From contig JAVKOQ020000088.1 of the NCBI GenBank assembly GCA_031835245.2, positions 1-64,000 of the forward strand: a stretch of DNA of 64,000 nucleotides, written 5' to 3'. The stretch is from Balamuthia mandrillaris (Eukaryota). The position numbers and the translations under genes are program-made. Below are positions 1-14,681 of the stretch, piece after piece (within the stretch, counting starts at the first letter, position 1; every line of letters starts with the position of its first letter). The notes beneath the pieces were generated by a model that had not been told where the DNA came from, did not search any database, and worked only from the letters and a program-made list of their open reading frames with translations.

Positions 1-14
1 AGGAAAATACTCGC

Positions 15-2489
15 TTGCCACCGTTGAGCCAAGAATGGTTACATGAGTCGTCTTTGGCAGATGCCCTTATGTCAGCTACTCCCCCAAAGGCAACAACAAG
101 CCGTCATCGAATGAAAGGACAACAAGAGAGGATGTCAGAAGAAGAGGAAGAGGAAGATGAAGACGAAGAGCAACAAGAAGAAGAAGAAGAAGAAGAAGAA
201 GAAGAAGCGATGATGGAGGAAGATCCAGAGGCCTTCTTACATCCCCCACTGGATCACCAGCAATTAGAGCAAGCGGCCCAAAAGGAAGCGATAGTAGATA
301 AGCAGCATTCCGCCAAGGAAAAGTTGTTCCTCTACCGTATAAAGCTGACCCATTATTGTCCTCCCTTTACGGTGCAAGAAGCCTTGGCAGAGAACGCGTT
401 GAACTTTGCCAGTCTGAAATCCTTGAAAGGCATGCGCATTTCTACCAGCATCAACCTTTCTGGACCTTTGGAGGATGTTAGGCGGTTGGTGCTCGCTGTT
501 CGTCGCTGCTTGATGAAGGAAGCGCAACAACAGAATACTCTGCTGGAGTTGGATCCTTTGGACAGAAAGGTCTGGAAGACACGCATTCATCATCCGGTTC
601 GTTCTCAGCTGGAGCGAGTGTGGCCGCACATCGCAGTGGAAAAATCCAAAAAACCTGAGCGAAGACGAAGCAAAAGCAGCAGCAGCAGCACCAAAAGCAA
701 GAACAAGAGTACAGCTAGCAGCTCTGCTACAGTTAACATGCCAGCAGGCCAGTTATCCGATGCAGCTGCTATTGTGCATGTCAAAGATTTGCCTGAGCTG
801 GATGCTATATCACCACTCGCAGCTGATTGGTAAGTCGTTTTTTTATTTGTTTGTTTGTTTGTTTGTTTGTTTCATAGCAACAACTCACCACTTTTTCACT
901 TTTCTTTTTCTCTTTTCCTCTTTATTTCTCTCTCTCTCTTTCTCTCTTTCTCTCTCTCTCTTTTTCTCTTTCTGTTACTCTCCAGGGATTTACAATATGT
1001 GGATCAATTGGAAGACAAAACGTGGCAGCCCATCCATACAGCCTCTACCAAAGTCGGCACTACAGAAATGAAGAGGGAGAAGCATCGCGCCAAACGCCAT
1101 TCGGTTAGGCACCAAAAAGCCATGGACAAGCTGGCTCAGAAGAGCAGTGAGCTGCAGCAAGATATCTCTGTTGATGCCAGCCCCTGCATTGACTTGACAG
1201 AGTTTTTTGGGCCTGACCTTCGCTCTTTTGCTGCTGTGGACCACCAGAGTAGTAGTTTGAATGATGCAGAGTTTAGTCTTGATGATGGCAGTCGTCTGGG
1301 TGGTGGTGGTGGTGGTGGTGGTGGTGATGATGATGCAAATGCTACATCAGTTGGTGAGTTTGTAGACAAAATGGACATAGCAGCAGCAGCAACAGCAGCA
1401 ATAGCAGCAAAAAGAAAGCAGCAAAAACCAAGCTCAACAAAGCGCCCAAGAGCTATGTCATCCTCTGCTGCCTCTTCTTCTCCTGCAACAAGCAAGAAGC
1501 CACGGAAAGCAGATGATGATGTGCTGCTGAAAGAAAAGAAAAAGAAGCAAAAGCAGAAGCAAAAGCAGAAGCAGAAGCAGAAACAGAAACAGAAGCAGAA
1601 GCAAAAGCAACAGCAGAAAAAGAAGAAAAAGAAGACCACCACCAAGTCGGAGGAGTCAGAGGCGGCAGATAAGTCAGAGGAGTCAGAGCAGGAAGAGGAA
1701 AAATCCAAGAAGAAAAAGAAGCCTACAGCTTCTACCAAGTCTACTGCTCCTAGTATCAGCAGCAGCAGTAGCAATAGCAGCTCCTCAGAGAATGATGATG
1801 CTGATGCTGATGATGATGATGATGATGAGATTGCCAGTCTCATGAGTGTTGATATCACTCCTGCAACAGGTAAGAGGTGCTCATGTTTGGTGGTTACTAC
1901 AACAACCACAACATCCACTACTCCTACTCGTTTTTTTTTTCTTTTTTTCTTTTTGTTATTACTTGCTTATATCCGTCCTTTCTTTGCACAATAACAACAC
2001 ACAAATGCATCGCATCTCACTTGCATGCATGCATGCATACAGATACACCACGTGGTGGTGGTGGTGGTGGTGGTGGTGGAAATAACAAAAGCAAGACAAA
2101 TATGCCCAAGACAGCTCCATCAGCAGTTGCAGTGGATGAAGAGAGTGATGATTCCATTCTGATCGACGTGTTGGGATGTATGTATTATATTTCATTTTGT
2201 CTGTTGGTTGGAGTTTGTTTGTTGGATTGTTTGTCCTTTTCCTCTTTGTGTTTTTTTCTTTTTGGCTGTTTTGGTTGCAATTCTATCCTTATGCAGTAGC
2301 GCTCCGTCGGAGCGGCAGCTTTTTAACTCCAGTTTTGTGTTTTTACTATTCATTGTTTTTTGATTGTCTTTTGGTGTTGATTGTTTAGCGCTCCATCGGA
2401 GCGCTATCTTTTTGGTGTTTGTTTGCAGTGTTATGCCTTTGTGATTTCTCATTCCATTACTTACTGATTGTGGTTGTTGTTGTCTTATG

Positions 2490-2526
<37 letters not shown>

Positions 2527-2923
2527 ATTGTTTTAGTATCAAAGCAAACTGCTAGTGACCCAGCTAAACAAGCAGCAGCAACAGCAGAAGAAGAAGAAGA
2601 AGAAGAAGAAAAAGAAAAAGAAAAAGAAAAAGAAAAAGAAAAAGAAGAGGAACAGAGAAGCAAAGATGCTAGCAGAGACAAGGAAGAAGAAGAAGAAAAA
2701 GAAGAAGAGGAGGAAGCAGAAGAAGAAGTAGAAGAAGAAGAAGAAGCAAAAGCTGGAGAAAAAGAAGCAGAAAAACAGAAAGGAGAGGAAAACACAAGTG
2801 CATCCAAGAGCCTTAGCAACAAATCTACGCGCAAGGCTGCAGCTGCTGCCCAAAAGGCTATTGCTACTGCTGCAGCCAAATCATCTTTGCAAAGTGCTGC
2901 TGCTGCTGTGGCTGCGTCATCTA

Positions 2924-2962
<39 letters not shown>

Positions 2963-3006
2963 AAGGAGCCACAACTCGTTCACAACGCCGTAACACAGGC
3001 AGGTGA
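15..3006 (+). CDS. Orphan multi-exon protein, 5'-truncated by the window edge; acidic/basic low-complexity rich; possibly cargo or partner gene of the YR element
   Basis: Phase-consistent GT-AG joins of the listed ORFs: exons <15-829, 986-1869, 2043-2177, 2537-3006 (TGA). One globular-looking stretch (EKLFLYRIKLTHYCPPF...HIAVE) with no family recognised. Confidence 0.7.
2297..2406. repeat. Two copies of a GC-rich palindrome TAGCGCTCC(G/A)TCGGAGCG inside an AT-rich intron
   Basis: cgctccg-t-cggagcg at 2300-2314 and tagcgctcc-atc-ggagcgcta at 2386-2406, read directly from the sequence. Confidence 0.85.
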
Positions 3007-3435
3007 TCTCTTTCTCTTTTTATATTTGTTGGTTAGTTGAGTGATAGCTTGAGTTGGTTGGTTGGTTGGTTGGTTGATGGTAATAATATTGGTTAAACAA
3101 TGGATAGATAGCTGAATAGTAAAGTAATAATGGTGGTGATGGTAATAATGGTTAAGAGTGCTGAGTGAGAGTAAGTGAGTAATAGTAGTGATTGTTGTTG
3201 TAAATAATAGATAGGCAACAAAAAAAGACAACTGAGTATGAAAAGGCAATTATAAAAATGAAAAAGGAAAAAAAAGAGAAAGAAAGAAAATGATTTTAGG
3301 AAAGAAAAGGAAAAACAAAACAAGTAACCACATAGTTCTCATTTAGTTTTATCATCTCTTTATTCATTCATCCTCAATTACTAACTTCTTGTTTCTTTTG
3401 TTTCACAATTTGTTGTTTGTGTTTGTGTCTACTAT

Positions 3436-3467
<32 letters not shown>

Positions 3468-3624
3468 TTAACAAACAGAAGATAATCTATCTATTCCTGC
3501 TGCCTTTGACCAACCTCCACCAATAAACAACAACAATAACAACAACAACAACAACAACAACAAAGAAGTAGCAGTAGCAAAAACAATAGTAGCAACAGCA
3601 GCAAAAGAAGAGGATGATGAAATA

Positions 3625-4872
3625 ATGATTGTCTCAATATCATCATCATCATCATCATCATCCTTATCCACAACATCTCTCTATCATCACTTGCCTCCCT
3701 ATCAGGCTCTGGACTCTCGCTCTTTCATTCGCAAGCAGTTTTTGGATCATTATTGGTTAAAAACACCACCATCAGCTACCACCCTTGATTCTGCTCCAGT
3801 TATTGCTACTGTTGATAACCCTGCAGAACTCTGTTCACCTCCTTTTTCTGCATCACCCTTTTCATCTACCACCACCACCACCACCGCCACCACCACCGCC
3901 ACTATTACCACCACAGCATCAACAACCCAAACACAACCACGACAACAACAACCGAAAAGGATGATTTCTTCTTCTGGTTCTTCTTCTTCATTTGCTTCTT
4001 CTTCTTCTTCTTCTTTTTCTTCTTCTTCTTCTTCTTCAACAAATTCAGAGTCCTTTGTCTTTGAGAACAATGAAGATGTTATGGATAGCGGTAGCAATTG
4101 TAATTTATTGTCATTATCATCATCCTCATTAGACGGAGGAGGAGGAGGAGCAGAAACAGATATAGATGCAACAAGTAAAACAACAGCCACACCAACGTTG
4201 ATAGATTTGTTGTTGTTGACCGACGACAAAGAAGAAGAAGAAGAAGAAGAAGAAGAAGAAGATAAAGAAAAACACAAAGAAGAAAAACAAGAAAAGAAGA
4301 AAAGAGATAACCAACATATTGGAGCTAGAACAGCAAATGATAATACTGATGATACCACACATGGCAGCAGTAGTCGTAACGGTGGTGATGGTGCTGGCAG
4401 ACGTCTTTCTCGTGCTATCACATTGATGAACCATTTGTCAGAAGAGCGCTGGACAGAGTTGACAGCAGTGACGAGTCGATGGAGCCCTTCGACCCAACGT
4501 AAACATGCTTGGACTTTGGCCATCTGGGAAGCGCATTGTGCACATCATCAATGTTTGCCAGCTCTTCCTTTGAATCTCCAACGCCATAATGTAGGAGCCT
4601 TTGTTCAATGGTTGATTTTGGATGTGGGGTATGCCTTGAGCTCTGTGCGTGATGTCATGATTGCCAGTCTTTATCGTTTGCATGATGAAAGTATCCAACA
4701 ACAGCTTGATACCCTTGCTGCCTCCTCCTCCTCCTCCTCCTCCTCCTCCTCCTCCACTTCCTCTGTTTCTTCCATCTCTTCATCCCCAGCATCATCACCT
4801 ACTTCTATTATCACCACAACCAGCAGGAATGCTTCTCCTCTATCCAAAACCCTTCTTGGTGATGGTGTCACT

Positions 4873-4924
<52 letters not shown>

Positions 4925-5268
4925 GACGCACGACAGCAATGATGGCAACAGATCATGCCTACTTGTTGTTGCTAAAGAACCAAATGGATGCCATCAAAGA
5001 TCAAGTCAAACAGGCCATTCGGCATTGCAAAAGAGCCAAACCCTCCTGTTCTAGCAAACAATTGTGCAAAGATGCTTGTTTGCTGGATGACGTCTTGCAT
5101 ATCATCGCATCCACTCCAGATGGACTGGTGAGCAAAGCTGGTGAAGCCAGTTGTTGGTTACACAGTGTTTGTACTGGTGCCAGAGCCATTACAGCAGCAA
5201 ACATTCGTTTGGGTGATATTGTGGCATTTCGACCTAAACTTTCATCCTCCTTTTCCAACAACAACAAT

Positions 5269-5314
<46 letters not shown>

Positions 5315-6138
5315 GCCGCAGCAGCAGCAGCAGCAACATCAGCTGTCACCACCAAGAGGATGCCTTTTCTCCTCCTCTTTATTTCCTTTCTTTGCGCCAA
5401 CAAGTCACCAAAGGAATACCAAATCATTGGAATCATGTCGTTACTTTTGAAGGTTATTTAACACCACCACCACCACCACCACCACCACCACCAGGAGGAA
5501 TATCTTCATCATCACCATCCCCGTTATCCTCATTGCCACTTAGCACCACTACTACCACCTCTACCATCACGACCGCTGCTGCATCAACAACATCAACCGC
5601 TGGAGTTTGTCTTGGAGATTTTATTTACTGGCTAAACAAGCATCTGCTGTGCAAGCATGGTTTGGATTTGCGAGAGTTTCACAACTGGTGCTTGACAGAC
5701 AAACAAAAACAAACATCATTATGGGGATGGTCACGCGATACTTTGAATGCCAAGCTGCAAGACCGCGCTGTTCGGGCTGGTTATCCTGAAGGGTTATTCT
5801 CCTTTCACTCCTTACGTGCTGGCTTCCTTTGCACTGCCTTGATCTTGGAGGGACTGCAGGAAGGGCATAGTCAGAACAATGTACTGGATACCACTGCCCT
5901 TATCGCAGGTTGGGTACCTCGTGGTAGATCTCAGCAAGTCTACGTCAAGGATACATTAAAACGTGCTATTGTGGCCAATCGCTTGGTTAGCAATGTTACC
6001 ACCCTTCATCCTTCTTCTTCTTCTTCTTCTTCTTCTTCTTCTTCTTCTTCTGCTGCTGCTGCTGATCATCATTCTCCTGGGCCTCGACATTGTGGTTTGT
6101 TATTCATCTGATTTTTTGTTTTTCTTTTGTTTTTTCTT

Positions 6139-6179
<41 letters not shown>

Positions 6180-7673
6180 TCTATAAACCACCTGTGCTTA
6201 CTTTTTCTCTTTGTGGTTTTTTTTATCCTCACTCCCTTGCAGTGATTGCTCCAGAGCTAGTTACCAAAGAAGCATTTCACAATCTATCCCCAGAGGCTTT
6301 GCAACAATCCAAGTGGTCTGCAGATACCAACTATCAGAGTTTTATCCATGCTGTTCGCCAACGGTTTGTTTGTTTGTTTGTTTGTTTGTTTGTTTTTTTT
6401 TTGTTGCCCTTTGCTTGTTGTTGTTTGTTTGTTGGTTTGTTTGTTTGCTGGTTTGTTTTGTTTGGATGGTATCTACCACTATCTATCAATCTATTCAGTC
6501 ATGGCTTGTTTGTTTGCTTGCTTGCTTGCTTGTTTGCATTCAAAAATGCACCTTTAGACTCAGCGCTCAGCTCGAACGCAGAGGTTTATTGTAGCAGCAA
6601 CAACATTCATGGTCTAAACAATAATTGTTCTGATGGATTGGTGTTGGTCTATTTGTTCTTCTTTTGACATTGCATCATTTATTCACACTTTGTTTTTTGT
6701 CTCTTTTTCTTTCTTTCTTTCTTTCTCATTCTTTCTTTTTCTCTTTTTCTCTTTTTCTTTCTTTTTCTTTCTTTTACACTGCTTCTTTAGTTTCATGAAA
6801 CGAACAGATTTACCAACCAAAGATCAACAAATACGATTTTATCGCTCCTTGTGGCTTGAATGTTGTACTGCTTGGGTAGACAAAGATGAGTTTGACAAGG
6901 ATGTGTTAGCTGAAGCTGCAGCAACTTATGAGGCCAAAAACAAATCTCCTCTTCATTGGCCCAATATTCATCATCAGCTTTGCCGTCAACATATCTCTGG
7001 CATTCTACAAGGTTTTTTCAGTGGCTTGAATGAGCTGGTGGATGAGTTTGTAGCTCCTGTACTTCCCAAGTTGGTCAACGGATCACCCATTCACAAAGCA
7101 TTCCTCACCTCTCGTCATCAAGAGCAGCCATTCTTACCTACTTTTCCTAATGATGATGTTCTGAAAAAAAACGATGATAACGATGATGATGATGAAAGGA
7201 ATCATAACTCAAAAGAAAAAACACCACCACGACAACGAGTTCGCAGAGCACTTCAGCAGCGACAACAAATGTTATCCAATCGACTCAAATATCAGAAGAA
7301 TGGTCATCGACAACGGATTGCTTGGCAGACACCAGAAATCCGTAGACTTGTCACTTGGCGCTTGCGTGATGGATGGTCTTGGTTGGAGATTGCCAAACAC
7401 TTGCCTACCCAACGCCGAACCAACAATGATTGCTATGACAAATGGCGCAATCTCCTCACAGAATTCTTCAACAATCTCGATGCTTTAAAAGACAAATACT
7501 TGGTGGCCCATGATGAGGACTTTGACACACCGGATGACAACCATGCTTCCCTCCCATCATCTCCTACTTCTACTACTACCACTACAGTCATATCCATCTT
7601 GGATGAAGAGGAAGAAACAAAGGAGAATGATGATGATGATGATGATGATGATATTATGATTATATCCAGTTAG
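3625..7673 (+). CDS. Tyrosine recombinase (integrase family) with N-terminal core-binding domain and C-terminal Myb/SANT (telobox-like) domain, ~1157 aa, 3 exons
   Basis: Exons 3625-6094, 6243-6363, 6791-7673 join in frame (3474 nt). Motifs: SPSTQRKH..W...C...V..FVQWL...Y..SSV (core-binding); TGAR (R, 5182); VTKG (K, 5410); FSFHSLRAG (HxxR, 5806-5817); AGW (5911); QVY (Y, 5941); Myb W..W..RTNNDCYDKWRNL (7308-7454). Confidence 0.88.
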
Positions 7674-7811
7674 ATTATATATATATATATATTCCTATGA
7701 GAAAATTGAAAAAATTGCTACTTTGCCCCACTTTATCCGTTGGACTTATAGACTTAGAGTTTTATAGAATGGACCATGGGGAGTTGAATGCTGTAGGTTC
7801 TGAGTACCCGC

Positions 7812-7825
7812 CCCTAACCCTAACC
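7812..7825 (+). repeat. Short interstitial telomeric-type repeat CCCTAACCCTAACC
   Basis: Read directly; two full CCCTAA units plus CC (TTAGGG on the minus strand). Confidence 0.8.
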
Positions 7826-7899
7826 TTCATAGATCTAGGAGCTGTAACAATATGATATTGAATTTTAAGCCTATTAAATAGGTGAGGCACAAATATGTG

Positions 7900-9050
7900 G
7901 AAGCAACACTAAGAACACTGTATTAAGGATAAAAGAGCAGTACAGAGTGTGTATATAGGTGTGGTGTGTGTGTATGGTTTCTGGCGGGTGTGTATGGATA
8001 CATAGGAACTCTATTTATATATGTTCATGGTTCTGGAATATTTCTCAAGTCTAAATCTCTGTAACTGTGATTTGATAGGAAAGAGGTGAGAGCAACTTCA
8101 GGAGAATAAGTACGAGAGATAAGATAATCATTGTGTGTTCTTATAATGCCAACAAGCACTGCTGTTGTCTTGAACATGGAGAAGGATATTACATAGTGCA
8201 ATCCTGGTCTGATTGCTAGAAGGATGTCAGCCAACTAATCAATGGAATCTCTAAGTATAGCATTACACAAAGCAAAGAAAAACAGGAAAAAAGAAAAAAT
8301 GATTTAAAAAGTTGAAAAATAGTAAGCATAATGTGATAAGGCTGGCAAGGTTAGGAAAAATCCTTTAATAGAATAAGATTTTTATACAAGGAAAAATAGG
8401 GATAAATATTATGGAAAAGTGGTATAACTATTATAAAGAAGAAAAAGAAACTCACTTATAAAGACAGAAAATGAGGAAGACAAAATGTGAGTAAAGAGAA
8501 GGAATTCAACTGCAAAATCAATGAAAATCATTTAATTACTCATTTTGTGTTTATGGTTTTGTTTTTATTATGTGCTTTTAAATACAGGTCAAGCTGATCT
8601 TCAATATAAGAAACTTGCTCAAAGGGAGAGAGAAACACAGAGAGAGAAAAAGAGAAAAAGAGAGAGAGAGAGTGTTGTAAAATAAGAACAGGATGATAGT
8701 GGAGACAAAGTAAGTATGAGACCCAAACTTAATTTACTAAAGTAAAGAATACAAGTAAAGTATTTTGTTATAAGTTGTCTGAGAGGAAGGAAGAAGAAAC
8801 AAGGAGAGGCAGTATTTAAACTAGAAGAAAGATCCATAAAAGAACAAAGCATAAAATGGAAGAGAGAGAGAAAAGGAAACATCAAGAAAGGAGAAGGGGA
8901 AGTTTAGAGGTTTCCTCAGGTCAACAGCAGAAGGAGAACTCGGCAGAAAACAGAGCTACTATGTTGGAATTTTCCAACAAGAGAGAAAGAAAAAAAGCAA
9001 GCAAAGATGTAAAATAGATAAAAAAAAGGAAAAAAGAGATAATTGTGATA
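7900..9050 (-). pseudogene. Possible decayed minus-strand gene or TE remnant, CpG-depleted
   Basis: Short ORF 8025-8234 preceded by an in-frame TAG and an intron-acceptor-like ATACTTAG; purine-rich tracts on + resemble minus-strand introns; almost no CG dinucleotides. Confidence 0.3.
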
Positions 9051-9093
9051 AATAATAATCATGAAACAAACAATCAAAGGAAATAATCAAAAG

Positions 9094-11991
9094 TTACATG
9101 TCACGTGGAGAAGCTATGCTAAAATGAGATAACTTTTCTTCTAGTTGTGCCTTGGCTGTGTTACGTTTACGCCGCTGATAGAGAAAGAAACCAGCAACAA
9201 AAGCTACAGCTAACAACACCACACTACATACGGTGGTTATTGTGATGATGAGGAGGTTGTTTTGACCATCATTATCAGCTTCAGTGAGCAGCACAGTAAA
9301 TCGAGAAGGAGAATTTCCACTTTTGATGGCCACGTCTTTGGCTTTGATGGAAATGGAAAGAGTATTGAGGGAGAAGGTGACAGGCTGCCGTATGTTGGTA
9401 TTGCCTTCAGAAAAGACCTCGCCCAGTACGAGCTTGCTGTCTGGTGTTATGCCTGGAAATTGGGTGGTTGGCAACTCCCATTCAAGGTCCAAATGGGTGC
9501 TTATTCCGTTGATAACAGGGTTGTTGGAGTCGAGAGGGACGATGGACACTTCAACGGAAGGAACTAGTGGTTGTTTCTTCTTAACAGTCACCGGTTCGTC
9601 TTGTGGGAGAACATCCCTGACTTGGATCACAGACGGCACAACGAGTTTGGTGATAGAGAGGGTGGCCACTGAGTTGTTTTGGGATTGTTCGCGTACCACC
9701 ACTTTCACGTCAATGGGGTTGACTGGGCTGGCCTGATCCACGAGCACGTCTGTCGGTTGCACCACCACAGAAACTGTTGGTGGAGCACATTTGGTAGGAT
9801 CTTGACTGCACGCTCCTCCGAGACAAGCGATGCCTGTCAGTCCATTAGAAGTGCTGCAAGAGCACTCCTGGATGTTGGCGACGCACATGCCGCTGTGGCA
9901 GCGACAAGGCTTGGTAGTAGGACATCCGTTTTGGGCGTAAACGCATTGACAGCTAAGAATGTCAGGGGCACAGCTGCCGTCCGCACATAACCAGGCATTG
10001 CTTCCGCAGAGAGGGGCAGGTGGGTCTGGTGGTGGTGGCGGAACCAGCTCGCGGCAAGTGGCTCCTTCCTTAGCAAATCCGGTGGGGCATTGGCAGGAAC
10101 AGCTGGTCACCAAGTTCTTGAGGGTTTGAGGGGCCTGGCAGTACGGGCACAACACACTACATCCGGGTTGAAGGTAACAATATCTATCGCTTTGCTTGCA
10201 GATAAAGAAATCGTCTTGCTGCAGTTACACAAACAAAACACAACACATAAGAACAAAGAGCAGGAAAGCACACACAAACCGAAACACTGGAAACGAATGG
10301 ATGAGAATTGCGTACCCCATCGCCATTAAAATCACCAGCAACAAGTCCTTCGCCTAACACAGAACCAAACTCAGAGCCATCCAGCCGAAAACCATTTTGG
10401 CCATTAAGGTTGGCAACGAAGATATCTCCCGCTGGCGTGGATGTACCAAAGATAATATAGGCACCCCCACCATTTGGAGTGATAAAAGAGCTATACCCAG
10501 CCGTGATGATGAGATCGTCAAGTCCATCCTTGTTGATGTCTCCAGCTGCAATATCATCTCCAAACAGTTGGTGGGAGCCTAGTTGATGCTGAACTCGAAA
10601 GCCGTTGACTCCATCCAGGTGCCTAAACGTAGTTGGAGATACGGGTTGGTTTGTACCAAGAAGGACGTAGACTGAGTCATCAACTCGAGTGGCCACGTCG
10701 GCCAGCCCATCCCCGTTAAAGTCACCGATAGGGGACAAGTGTAGTCCTATGTGAGAATTCTGTGCTGGGCCTTCCACGCGGATTGCCTCTCCGTTTTGCA
10801 CCATGACGTCCACATCTAGGACATCAGGTCTAGCACTTCTCGTGCCAAAGATGACATAGATAGCGCCGGTTCTACTAAAAGCTCCGTCGTAGTATTCTGC
10901 CCCGGTCACGACGTCATCGATGCCATCCCCGTTGAAATCTCCAATTCTCCTGATGGTTGCACCAAAATGGACTGGACCATCTATCCTATATCCTGTCGTT
11001 CCTTTAGCCTCCCACGAGCTCATAAAGCCACCTGGAGCAACATTCTCTCCACCAAAGACCACCCATATTGAGCCGGTGGATTGGCCGTTGAACCCGGCAG
11101 TCCAAGCACCCACCACGAAATCTCCTCTGTTTAACAAGAATCAATCAGCAAAAGTAACTAGAGTGAAGTGTTTTTTTTTTGAGTTTTTGTTTGTGCTAAC
11201 TTTCCATCACCGTTCAAGTCAGCTCCTGCCCCTCCTATTCCAGTTTGTCCACTGGCCTTAAAACGAAAACCGTTCGTGCCGTTCAGGGTAGTAAGGGGCC
11301 ATGCACCGGAAGGGTAAGGGTCCCTCCTTCCATACACCACATAGCCTGACTCAGCGGGCGCCCCTGGAGCACCAACCCCTATATCATCAATCTGAAATAA
11401 AAACCATCGTCACCATCGTCATTAGCTCATTTGTATGCATTGGGTGACGAGGTAACCGCTGTATTTGGTTTGGTGAAGCAAGGAAGTCTTACCCCATCAC
11501 CGTTGAAATCAGGTATGATCCAAGCATTTGAAACCTGGTCGTTGGGCTGCCCGTCCATACGAAAACCATTGATCCCATTCAGAGCTCCACCTGCTACAAC
11601 TCTCTTCTCGGTCGTACCAAATAGAACGTACGCAGAACCGCTATTAGATCGCTCGATGCCAACGCTCGTCACGATGTCTACCAATCCTGAAAGGAAGAAG
11701 GCGGGTTCAAACTCTCAAGAAATACACTACAAAAGAATTACGAGAAGCCGTCTTACCGTCTCCGTTGACATCCCCGCCTGTAGCCAAGTTCCATATCCAG
11801 GCTATAGAGTCTGCCCCTCTAAGCTTAAACTGTTCTGTTACAATAAACGGTTGTGCTACTGGCGGAGGAATAGGGCAACCAGAAGGAAAAGTGTTTGCTA
11901 GAACCACTGTTGGTGCTAAACAACCCATCGTTATCAGAGCCATTATGAGCTCCCACACAGCAAGTCTTTGTACAGTCAGCGCACTTTTCAT
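9094..11991 (-). CDS. FG-GAP (integrin-alpha beta-propeller) repeat type-I membrane protein with Cys-rich region
   Basis: Signal-peptide-like N-terminus; multiple G(D)xNGDG repeats across ORFs 11707-11991, 11427-11684, 11158-11340 and 10184-11137; Cys-rich stalk, TM helix (LLIITITTVCSVVLLAVAFVAGFFLY) and RRKR stop-transfer in 9094-10155. Confidence 0.85.
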
Positions 11992-12434
11992 CTTCGTTTA
12001 CTGTGAGCGGTTCCTTTTTTTTTCTTTTTCTCCTTCTCCTCCTTCCGTCTCCGTCAGCGATCCCTTTTTCTGTTGTTCAACCACAAGATGCATTGCCTTT
12101 TTCATCCACCTTTTGCCATTTTTGGTCCAATAATTTCTTCAACGTATCGGCAACTGCTAGAACCAGACCCGCCATTCCTGTGCAAGAGGACGTCACAACA
12201 GCACATGTAATGACGAAGCAGAGATACTACCTACAAGTTAAACGGCATTGGCATCAGTTTCTGACAGTGTTGCTCAGGCGTGGCTGTGAACCCGGTTCAT
12301 AGATGATCAACAAACTATTATAAAGAGGTAGCAGTAAAATATCGAGAAAAAAAATATAGAAATGTATTTGTACAAGAAGAGAACAATTCTCTTTACATAA
12401 ACCCAATTTTCTGCGAATAGGGCTCATCTTTTCG

Positions 12435-12462
12435 TTATCTATTTGAGAAAGCGAGATAGAGA

Positions 12463-12500
<38 letters not shown>

Positions 12501-14681
12501 AATTTAGCGTGAATGAAGGTTTTGACTACCAGAACGAGTATTAGGGGGTTGTAAAATGCATACCTGGCAAAGCCGTTGGGAGCATGTGCGTTGCTGCCGG
12601 AGGAACTAGTTGTGGATCGCCGTTTGGCAAAAGTTTTGTACCATGAGGCATGTTGTTTCTTTTCGTGGGTGGAAAGGTTAGCTTTCTGTGAAAAAGATTT
12701 GCCACAACCGGGGAACCCGCAAACATAAGGTCTCTCTCCTGTTAACGACCAATTTTTGTGAAACACAAGTGTGAACAGGTTGACTCTCTGGAAAAGGAGA
12801 GGGACAGAGAGAAAAAAGCGAAGAGAGAGAAAGAAAATACAAGAGAATAACCGCGTACCTGTATGAATACGTTGATGCCTCCGAAGATTCGAAGCCTGAG
12901 TAAAACTTTTGCCGCAGTGACTGCAAATGTGAGGCTTGCTTCCTTCGTGGGTGTTCATGTGTTCCTTCAAGGAGGCGCTATGAGCAAATCTCTTTTCACA
13001 GCCTGGGTGAGTACACGCGTAAGGCTTCTCCTTGGTATGAACGCGAATGTGTTGAGTCAAGTTAGAGCTGTCCGCAAAGGCCTTTCCACAAGCATCACAA
13101 ACGTAGGGTTTGGACCCTGGATTCTTTTTGGCTATGTTGTATATACACACCTAAAACAATTTGTGCAAAAAAAAAAAAAAAACTGAGAACAAAAAACAAC
13201 AAAAAGAACCAAAATAGCAAAAAACAAAGGTTGCGTACTTGGATAGTAAAGGGTTTTTCATCTCTGAGGTTGGGTGGTTCCGCCTTGTCCTTCTTCGCAA
13301 CGTGCGCCACGTCTTGATTCTCTTGAGAAAAATCGTTCTCTTCCCCGAAGTTCGCCATGGTACCGTTATCGCTTTCTTTCAATCTTTCTTTGCCCTTGTT
13401 TGCCTTCCTGCGCTTGATAGGTAAATTGGAGACGGATTCTCGGCGAGAGAGCCGCTTTCGTTTCGTTTTTTCTGGTACTTGCTCTATGATATGCCGCACA
13501 TCTTCATCCACGTAATCGGGATCAGATTCTTCATCGTCCACCTCTTGCTTGATGGGTTGTTGGCTCAAGGCTTTGCATACGTGGTGCTCTCCAGCATCAG
13601 GTGAATGTTCAACATCAGGATCAGTAGTAGGCTTTCGATAATCAGAAGAGGAGGAGGAGGAAGATGAAGATGAAGATGAAGAGGATGAGGATGAGGAGGA
13701 GGAGGAGGAGGAGGAGGAGGAAGAGGAAGGAGCAAGTGGCATCAAGTCCAACGCGTCATGCTTTCCTTCTCCCTGGGAACCTTCTTCTTTGCGGGCAAGA
13801 AGTGGCGCCTTCTTGTGCACTTCCAGCTGCTCCTCCACAAAGGATTTCAACTTTTGCAGCGTGTTATCGTCTAAGTCGGCAAGATCGATAGTTATATCAT
13901 TGTCCGCAGATGTCCGCAAGTTTCGAGGGGCATAGCAGCGCAACAAGTCAATGACCTTGAGTTGATCTCGGTTGGAGAGGCGGCTTATGTTTACCGAGAG
14001 CTTGCGCCTTTCTTCCATGTTGAGAACCTTGGGCTTGTCTTTTTTCCTTTTTTCCATGTTCCCGGGAGCATCGTCATCAGGCTCGAGCTCCGCCTCAGCG
14101 ATTAGGGAAGACACTCGTTTGCTCCGCTCGTTTTCAGACTCATACTCCGAGTTGTAGTCGTTTTCAGAGGAGAGATCACCTTCCTCCCCGCTTTTACCTT
14201 CCTCCTTGTACAGCGTCTTCTGCAACCTCTTTTGTGCTCTAGTTTTGGCTTTCCTCCCCTTTTGCATTTCCTCTCCTTCCTTCCATGCCGCCAGGGGAAA
14301 GGAAGGCGAAGAAGAAGAAGAAGAAGAAGAAGAAGAAAAGGAAGAGGTGGAAGGTGGTAAAGAGGACGCCTTATGACGAGCTCTGCTGCTGGAGAGTCCA
14401 TGGTGGTCATAGGACACTGCCGAGGGTGGAGGAGAGGGCAACCTACGCTGACGGCTTCTTCCTCGCCTTTCTGTCTCTTCCTCTTCATCGTCCTCAATGC
14501 CCTTCTTGCTTCTTCCTCCTCCTATCCGCTTGTCTTGAGTTGTCGTTTCTTTGCGTAGAGTGGGCTTAAAGGTCGTATTGGTAAGCTTGTCAATAATCTG
14601 GCCTCGCCGCTCTTGGTACTCGTCCTTATCCATGTGCCCTTGCTTGAACAGGGCTCTCAATCTTTCCAGATCAGTTTCCAT
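12435..14681 (-). CDS. SHOCT + ET/NET domain + C2H2 zinc-finger protein
   Basis: N-term LERLRALFKQGHMDKDEYQERRGQII (SHOCT-like); LNMEERRKLSVNISRL...IDLADLDDNTLQKLKSFV (ET-like); tandem C2H2 fingers with HTKEKPY/HTGERPY linkers; stop at 12435 after a final intron is inferred. Confidence 0.8.

Follow-up and report, generated by a model that had tools for sequence, protein, structure and literature searches.

TATE, a telomere-associated tyrosine recombinase (YR) retrotransposon of kinetoplastids, resembles the family described here in being a YR element that forms tandem clusters at a fixed position within telomeric hexamers (PMC6681497). The available text of that paper assigns it gag-like, YR and reverse transcriptase (RT)/RNase H open reading frames (ORFs) as well as split direct repeats, and the accessible main text does not contain the word 'Myb' (PMC6681497). 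Compared by description, the present family differs in that its complete units measure 3.1-3.4 kb, contain one long ORF and lack RT. Endogenous nimavirus YRs share the insertion into host telomere repeats, (TAACC/GGTTA)n, and the occurrence in concatemers, but they reside in viral genomes of giant size (278-401 kb in majaniviruses and 300-360 kb in pemoniviruses), and the YRs themselves carry C2H2 and SAM-like arm-binding domains, with no mention of a Myb in the available text (PMC10871703). The units described here are far smaller (3.1-3.4 kb) and had no viral-contig match; relatives were absent from both the viral contigs and the prokaryote genomes searched.

Cryptons likewise employ a YR as their sole transposase, lack RT and often contain introns, and CryptonF additionally possesses a C-terminal DNA-binding domain (PMC3212892, PMC13465315, PMC8869645, in the portions available); CryptonV is described as microsatellite-specific (PMC8869645). 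Set beside CryptonV and CryptonS by description, the present family is distinguished by a C-terminal Myb and an apparent telomeric target. GCR1_C, DUF3504 and DUF3435 were absent among the Pfam matches listed for 35 family proteins (at most five families each) and for the ORFs of the window, that is, the whole 64-kb stretch (64,000 nucleotides) of Balamuthia mandrillaris DNA analysed here. Ciliate TBE ends bear telomeric repeats and Tec-like elements encode a YR; however, TBE/Tec elements are DDE (ITm) transposons with several ORFs, unlike the units considered here (PMC3558436, PMC5405496, available parts). As for the DNA-binding domain, the telobox Mybs of TRF1, TRF2 and plants resemble that of the window in comprising a single Myb with a TRF1-like helix 3 (PMC5737604, PMC2377444, available parts), whereas the window Myb has helices 1-2 nearer c-Myb, is fused to a recombinase, and has V418 and K421 replaced.

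Target-specific DNA transposons are rare in eukaryotes, according to the available text of PMC8869645, and the known telomere-inserting YR elements comprise a retrotransposon and giant viruses, for which the accessible texts name no targeting domain. Myb fusion goes unmentioned for TATE, nimavirus YRs and CryptonV in the portions searched (PMC6681497, PMC10871703, PMC8869645), and the available portions of PMC3537659 and PMC9528979 contain nothing on a Myb-fused YR family. Such a family is apparently undescribed, no description having been found in the freely accessible literature searched.

The locus probably represents the right end of a multi-copy YR-Myb DNA transposon whose integration sites are telomeric repeats, to which the Myb is predicted to direct it. 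This reading draws on the intact catalytic set, the multi-copy state, the end of the element at a telomeric tract, the tracts and end motif of relatives, their arrays and the lack of RT. A minimal 3-kb, one-gene element would then carry a candidate targeting domain in its Myb, whose recognition helix is TRF1-like. How recombinases locate telomeres becomes directly testable, with natural variants occurring on two different repeats, and the element offers a compact repeat-specific integrase for study.

Recombinase gene and Myb domain

The recombinase gene occupies the following positions of the window:

3472-7673, forward strand: YR gene, four exons, intact; exons inferred by homology
3472..6094, forward strand: exon 1, core-binding and catalytic domains, interrupted by homopolymer tracts
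3625, 3961, 4081 and 4426: Met codons, candidate starts of the YR gene
5173-5187, 5404-5415, from 5806, 5905-5913 and 5935-5949: YR catalytic motifs TGARA, VTKG, HSLR, AGW and QVYVK, respectively
6243..6363, forward strand: exon 2 (inferred from GT-AG introns, open frame and gene model P0005)
6558..6583, forward strand: exon 3 (inferred from GT-AG introns and homology)
6808..7673, forward strand: exon 4, helical linker, Myb domain, acidic tail and stop
7308..7460, forward strand: single Myb domain, the last domain of the gene

All three introns have GT-AG borders, the spliced frame is open, and its product is 97% identical to the public gene model P0005. The exon model rests on homology and not on RNA; in three raw RNA runs (3-5% of each) and one contig run, the gene attracted few reads, and joints were absent. 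All six motifs of the catalytic R-K-H-R-(H/W)-Y set are present in the window ORF, and the corresponding positions are invariant in every ungapped row of a family alignment of 88 rows (84/84, 87/87, 88/88, 88/88, 86/86 and 84/84). The predicted structure of the paralogue P0003 (mean pLDDT 80.6) has Cre as its best fold match (E 2.2e-6); judged on this model, the protein is predicted to have the core-binding and catalytic YR fold. Cre emerged from the fold search only, since a YR sequence profile matched no solved YR in the PDB. Atlas matches to the YR, at 0.92-0.93, are confined to unnamed or phage-integrase-like clusters and serve as a lead only.

Of nine protein matches, six bear the name Balamuthia mandrillaris and one that of Monocercomonoides exilis. 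Cluster look-ups place the amoeba copies in three subfamilies on many contigs. The wider family numbers 1,627 clusters when E <= 0.001 is allowed, and 244 (50% identity clusters) under the stricter limit of E <= 1e-30; a Myb is present in 87 of the 153 family proteins scanned, many of those without it being partial.

The Myb domain ends in ...RRTNNDCYDKWRNL, and its match to Pfam Myb_DNA-binding (E 6.5e-5, 23.4 bits) falls slightly below the 24.4 cut-off. The initial annotation had described this terminus as telobox-like; RRTNNDCYDKWRNL is indeed present, but the V, L and K of the telobox are replaced by N, C and Y. The comparison of TRF-type with generic Mybs that it had called for gave a divided outcome: over the whole domain, c-Myb repeats outrank the TRFs, whereas a helix-3 profile built from five family members places TRF1/Terfa in the top nine positions against the PDB, with c-Myb appearing only at E 0.22 or worse. 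The TRF1 base interface consists of R380, V418, K421, D422 and R425, as given in the accessible part of PMC5737604. Equivalents of R380 occur in 78 of 87 family Mybs, followed by R425 (62), D422 (61), K421 (31) and V418 (20). The window Myb retains three of the five (R380, D422 and R425), with N at V418 and Y at K421, and the paralogues P0003 and P0004 retain all five; the Mybs of two related loci, L004 and L018, have no D422 equivalent, yet are sited at TTAGGG tracts. The Myb is thus no clean member of the telobox class, though it is predicted to work like one.

Telomeric tract and element terminus

Four further features define the extent of the element:

1..3007, forward strand: ORF1, an upstream gene, spliced and low-complexity; its 5' part and the left end of the element lie beyond the window
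7794..7811, reverse strand: element end motif, which on the G-rich strand reads 6 nt, ACTC, 2 nt, AACC and keeps the register seen at the ends of relatives
7812..7825, forward strand: (CCCTAA)2CC telomeric tract, CCCTAACCCTAACC, at the element terminus
7825..7827, no strand: right boundary of the multi-copy element, from contig depth, an X1 contig start and an X1 contig joint

The initial annotation had placed CCCTAACCCTAACC at 7812-7825, about 140 bp past the stop, and had considered it the only tandem telomeric repeat in 64 kb. The position is exact, with 138 bp separating the stop codon (7673) from the tract (7812), and the uniqueness persists when one mismatch is allowed: (CCCTAA)2 with at most one mismatch occurs once in the window (0.09 expected), and 7 of 100 whole-window shuffles held such a match. 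The compositional boundary that had been located at the tract is real as a change in composition but approximate in its placement, as GC skew reverses near 7600, where the coding sequence ends and not at the tract, and GC declines gradually from 0.45 to 0.27. The host telomere type, a point that had been left for checking, is TTAGGG in Balamuthia (bioRxiv 10.1101/2025.02.25.640156, available text).

Since the window is rich in microsatellites (93 tandem hexamer dimers), the tract within it, taken alone, is weak evidence. The same 93 dimers, and the whole-domain matches that favour c-Myb, speak for the view that (CCCTAA)2 is a microsatellite lying by chance next to a generic recombinase with a fused Myb. 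This is very improbable and already largely refuted: only 3 of 20,000 shuffles of the 300 nt located 3' of the stop yielded an exact copy, the tract coincides with the element end, and 15 of 19 related loci bear tracts.

The multi-copy state was assessed by aligning contigs of four runs (X1, X3, X6 and X12) to window 1-9400; X1 may be the source of the window itself, and summed contig depth does not equal copy number. From bin 7537-7850 to bin 7851-8164, summed depth fell from 12,578 to 406 in X1, from 214 to 7 in X3 and from 842 to 3.5 in X12. In X6 it rose from 58 to 152, because a different repeat covers 7870-8145. The collapse just past CCCTAACCCTAACC in three of four runs indicates that the tract marks the element end, in line with the expectation that genomic copies would end at CCCTAA repeats. 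In X1, a contig of single-copy depth (29) begins at 7798, which for contigs assumed to be built from 31-mers means that sharing ends at 7827, and a contig joint departs from the element at 7826; the boundary therefore lies at 7825-7827. At least two other contexts in X1 appear to share the tract plus the following T.

ORF1 is part of the element. It is multi-copy, with high summed contig depth from base 1 and homologues P0176-P0182, and residues 454-912 of P0181 match window 3-1529 at 67%. Searches with ORF1 returned no Pfam family above the cut-off and no Atlas match. At the opposite end, the gene models P0165 and P0166, which belong to a second Balamuthia subfamily, continue from the Myb into LGLRV[PL]APNPNP, comparable with VPAPNPNL in the translated window end; back-inference from the amino acids suggests that these tails are likely the end motif and CCTAAC repeats caught as a false exon.

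Several further observations concern the amoeba copies. One X1 contig, at depth 6 against about 28 for single copy, passes from the element end at 7826 to position 4501 of the same element across a stretch of unknown letters; it may be chimeric, or may reflect a truncated copy with another, nested or in tandem, behind it. The fused models P0122, P0004 and P0173 place a second-subfamily YR-Myb upstream of ORF1 or of a third subfamily, an order that hints, at the level of gene models, at mixed tandem arrays in the amoeba too. The names of P0165, P0172, P0176, P0177, P0181, P0184 and P0186 look like mis-annotations or element/host-gene fusions (RapGAP, DEAD helicase, VASt, carbonic anhydrase and others). 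All eight inspected models of the window subfamily (P0005, P0009, P0011, P0120 and P0183-P0186) keep the Myb side without the N-terminal YR half, which fits loss from the outer end, although genes split during prediction could give the same picture. On the largest contigs, the spacing of three family locus tags equals approximately the number of genes in a contig, which hints weakly that family copies sit at contig ends.

Two other repeat families, represented by high-depth diverged contigs, lie just right of the element end (7870-8145 and 8718-8979), and neither recurs in the window. Opposite-strand contig joints occur at 8741 and 8965/8979, and the outer 35 nt of 8741-8979 do not form a clean inverted pair. 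Window 9094-13150, judged from ORF text only, holds host genes: one, on the minus strand and with repeat-rich exons, for a membrane protein, and another of the C2H2 zinc-finger type.

Relatives beside telomere-type repeats

Nineteen metagenome loci (L001-L019) were collected by protein search alone. In 15 of them, TTAGGG or TTGGGG occurs on one strand or the other as two or more exact tandem hexamers, against 0.02 loci expected from 200 shuffles per locus, a control that does not model telomere-rich contigs. Relatives in other hosts thus adjoin telomere-type repeats, as had been anticipated for other copies. By host group, an exact tract is found in four of six (L001/L003; L004; L018/L019; and the code-6 set, L006-L017), a degenerate tract in one and none in one. 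The tract of L002 is degenerate, and L005 has none in the 1.26 kb upstream of its ORF, its contig stopping inside the ORF; L016 and L019, both of which stop short of the element ends, likewise have none.

Polarity is uniform, the element lying 3' of the tract on the G-rich strand at every short-tract locus. A short tract was considered as the sign of a nearby chromosome end and rejected, the polarity being wrong for a terminal tract. It suits the inner remnant of a telomere, which for the window would lie to the left. In the window and in L004, the YR gene is oriented toward the short tract, whereas most loci show the opposite orientation. Short tracts comprise uniformly 2-3 repeats in TTAGGG hosts and 2-8 in the code-6 host. 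Combining L001 and L003, which are 99% identical, gives three repeats, an element of about 3.3 kb and then 19 repeats running to the contig end; telomeric repeats are thus present at both ends of the element. In Crypton-type transposons, short terminal direct repeats reflect microhomology with the target.

Past the tract, relatives share a motif that keeps a constant register to the repeats and consists of 6 nt, AC(T)C, 2 nt and often AACCC. Scored with a matrix derived from other loci (10 distinct ends), the window end ranks within the top 0.54% of window 18-mers, the register and width of the matrix having been picked after viewing the data and L004, where the motif is absent, having been left out. 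The motif is likely the element-side recombination arm.

The code-6 loci, from a ciliate-like host, contain YR-Myb units of about 3.1-3.2 kb arranged head-to-tail and joined by (TTGGGG)2-8. TTGGGG, the telomere repeat of Tetrahymena, is probably that of this host as well. The units are 37-67% identical in protein; one of them has three different next neighbours in L007, L008 and L009, and an identical unit start is preceded by tracts of differing length, though these short-read junctions may be chimeric assembly. Tandem telomeric clusters, a trait of TATE/VIPER-like elements, thus occur in the code-6 arrays and in L001/L003, and are indirectly suggested for the amoeba by fused gene models, while the RT/RNase H ORF of such elements was not found in the complete units of relatives. 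A YR as sole transposase with no RT, the Crypton-type arrangement, characterizes these complete units, which also contain no DDE ORF. No reverse transcriptase family was found in 12 ORFs of the code-6 units, and a YxDD-like motif gave one chance match in five units and none in window 1-7830. In L001 and L002, no ORF longer than 110 aa lies wholly beyond the YR gene, and an Rfam scan of 6 of the 19 loci returned nothing but a tRNA.

Tract length bears on whether the repeats belong to the element or to its target. A YR transposon could carry 2-3 telomeric repeats in its own end as a Myb-bound arm site, comparable to those of phage integrases, and insert into other or loose targets. The non-telomeric flank in the window, the uniformly short tracts (2-3 repeats) of TTAGGG hosts and the three or more X1 contexts sharing (CCCTAA)2CC plus T (assuming 31-mer contigs) agree with this. 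It is nonetheless unlikely, given that 2 to 8 repeats precede the same unit start in the code-6 host, that L001 terminates in 19 repeats, that arrays of diverged units are joined exactly at tracts, and that P0165 and P0166 imply three repeats with differing next codons.

It is also quite unlikely that the copies constitute a subtelomeric host gene family, possibly a domesticated chromosome-end recombinase, that was spread by ectopic exchange and whose tracts are scars of telomere healing. Homology does not continue into the flank but breaks off no more than about 2 bp from the tract, the motif keeps a fixed register to the tract across distant hosts, compact 3-kb single-gene units that are 37-67% identical change neighbours, and the catalytic residues are invariant; on the other side, the copies have introns, many gene models are partial, neither an empty site nor a circle was observed, and the tract polarity equally suits healed ends.

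Proposed integration route and variation in the recognition helix

If telomeric repeats are the target, the chemistry of YRs and the Crypton model, as described in the available sources, suggest that the recombinase would excise the element as a circle whose joined ends would recombine with (TTAGGG)n near the inner edge of the telomere. Integration would leave 2-3 repeats inside (2-8 in the ciliate-like host) and a long tract outside, and repeated rounds would build head-to-tail arrays. The Myb would supply the targeting, presumably by binding the repeats and an inverted AACCC half-site in the end motif. The two options that had been raised initially, a mark of the element's own terminus and a target of integration, are both supported and probably each partly true, since the tract lies at the terminus and varies in length among relatives as a target remnant would.

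The Mybs of TTGGGG units possess a different recognition helix, mostly RERAR. Co-evolution of Myb and repeat was set aside, because these units form one clade (SH-aLRT 100 in a quick tree of 39 rows), which corresponds to one switch of repeat. In the same quick tree of 39 rows, L004 groups weakly with amoeba proteins (support 85, long branch). A broader reading, which we put forward tentatively and hold to be possible but doubtful, is that of a widespread, unrecognized protist DNA transposon superfamily in which a telomere-reading Myb is joined to a Cre-like recombinase, the recognition helix sets the repeat targeted (TTAGGG or TTGGGG), and arrays remodel chromosome ends without reverse transcription. 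If so, it would represent a naturally re-aimed site-specific integrase, and its arrays would lengthen chromosome ends in the manner of insect telomeric retrotransposons, but without reverse transcription. The family would further account for some of the repetitive DNA found at the ends of protist chromosomes, and for many gene models that are wrongly fused.

Some minor features were observed in individual relatives. In L002 (1-3412), the sole junction consists of a degenerate three-hexamer tract and the end motif, and the contig ends overlap by 155 bp, so that the unit is circular or tandem. A small zinc-finger-like exon with the pattern CxxC...CSxxC occurs 5' of the YR in L002 (2732-2947) and L003 (402-548) and at the N-terminus of P0156; the pattern was found in 3 of 172 proteins scanned, with weak Pfam matches. 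A short ORF within the element of L001 (2659-2817) had no Pfam match and presumably resembles the start of the NF-YB histone fold. L019 contains a DDE_Tnp_1_7 transposase fragment (3-593) in place of the upstream end of the element, and in L004 a tRNA-Met (3599-3671) is located 250 bp past the tract.
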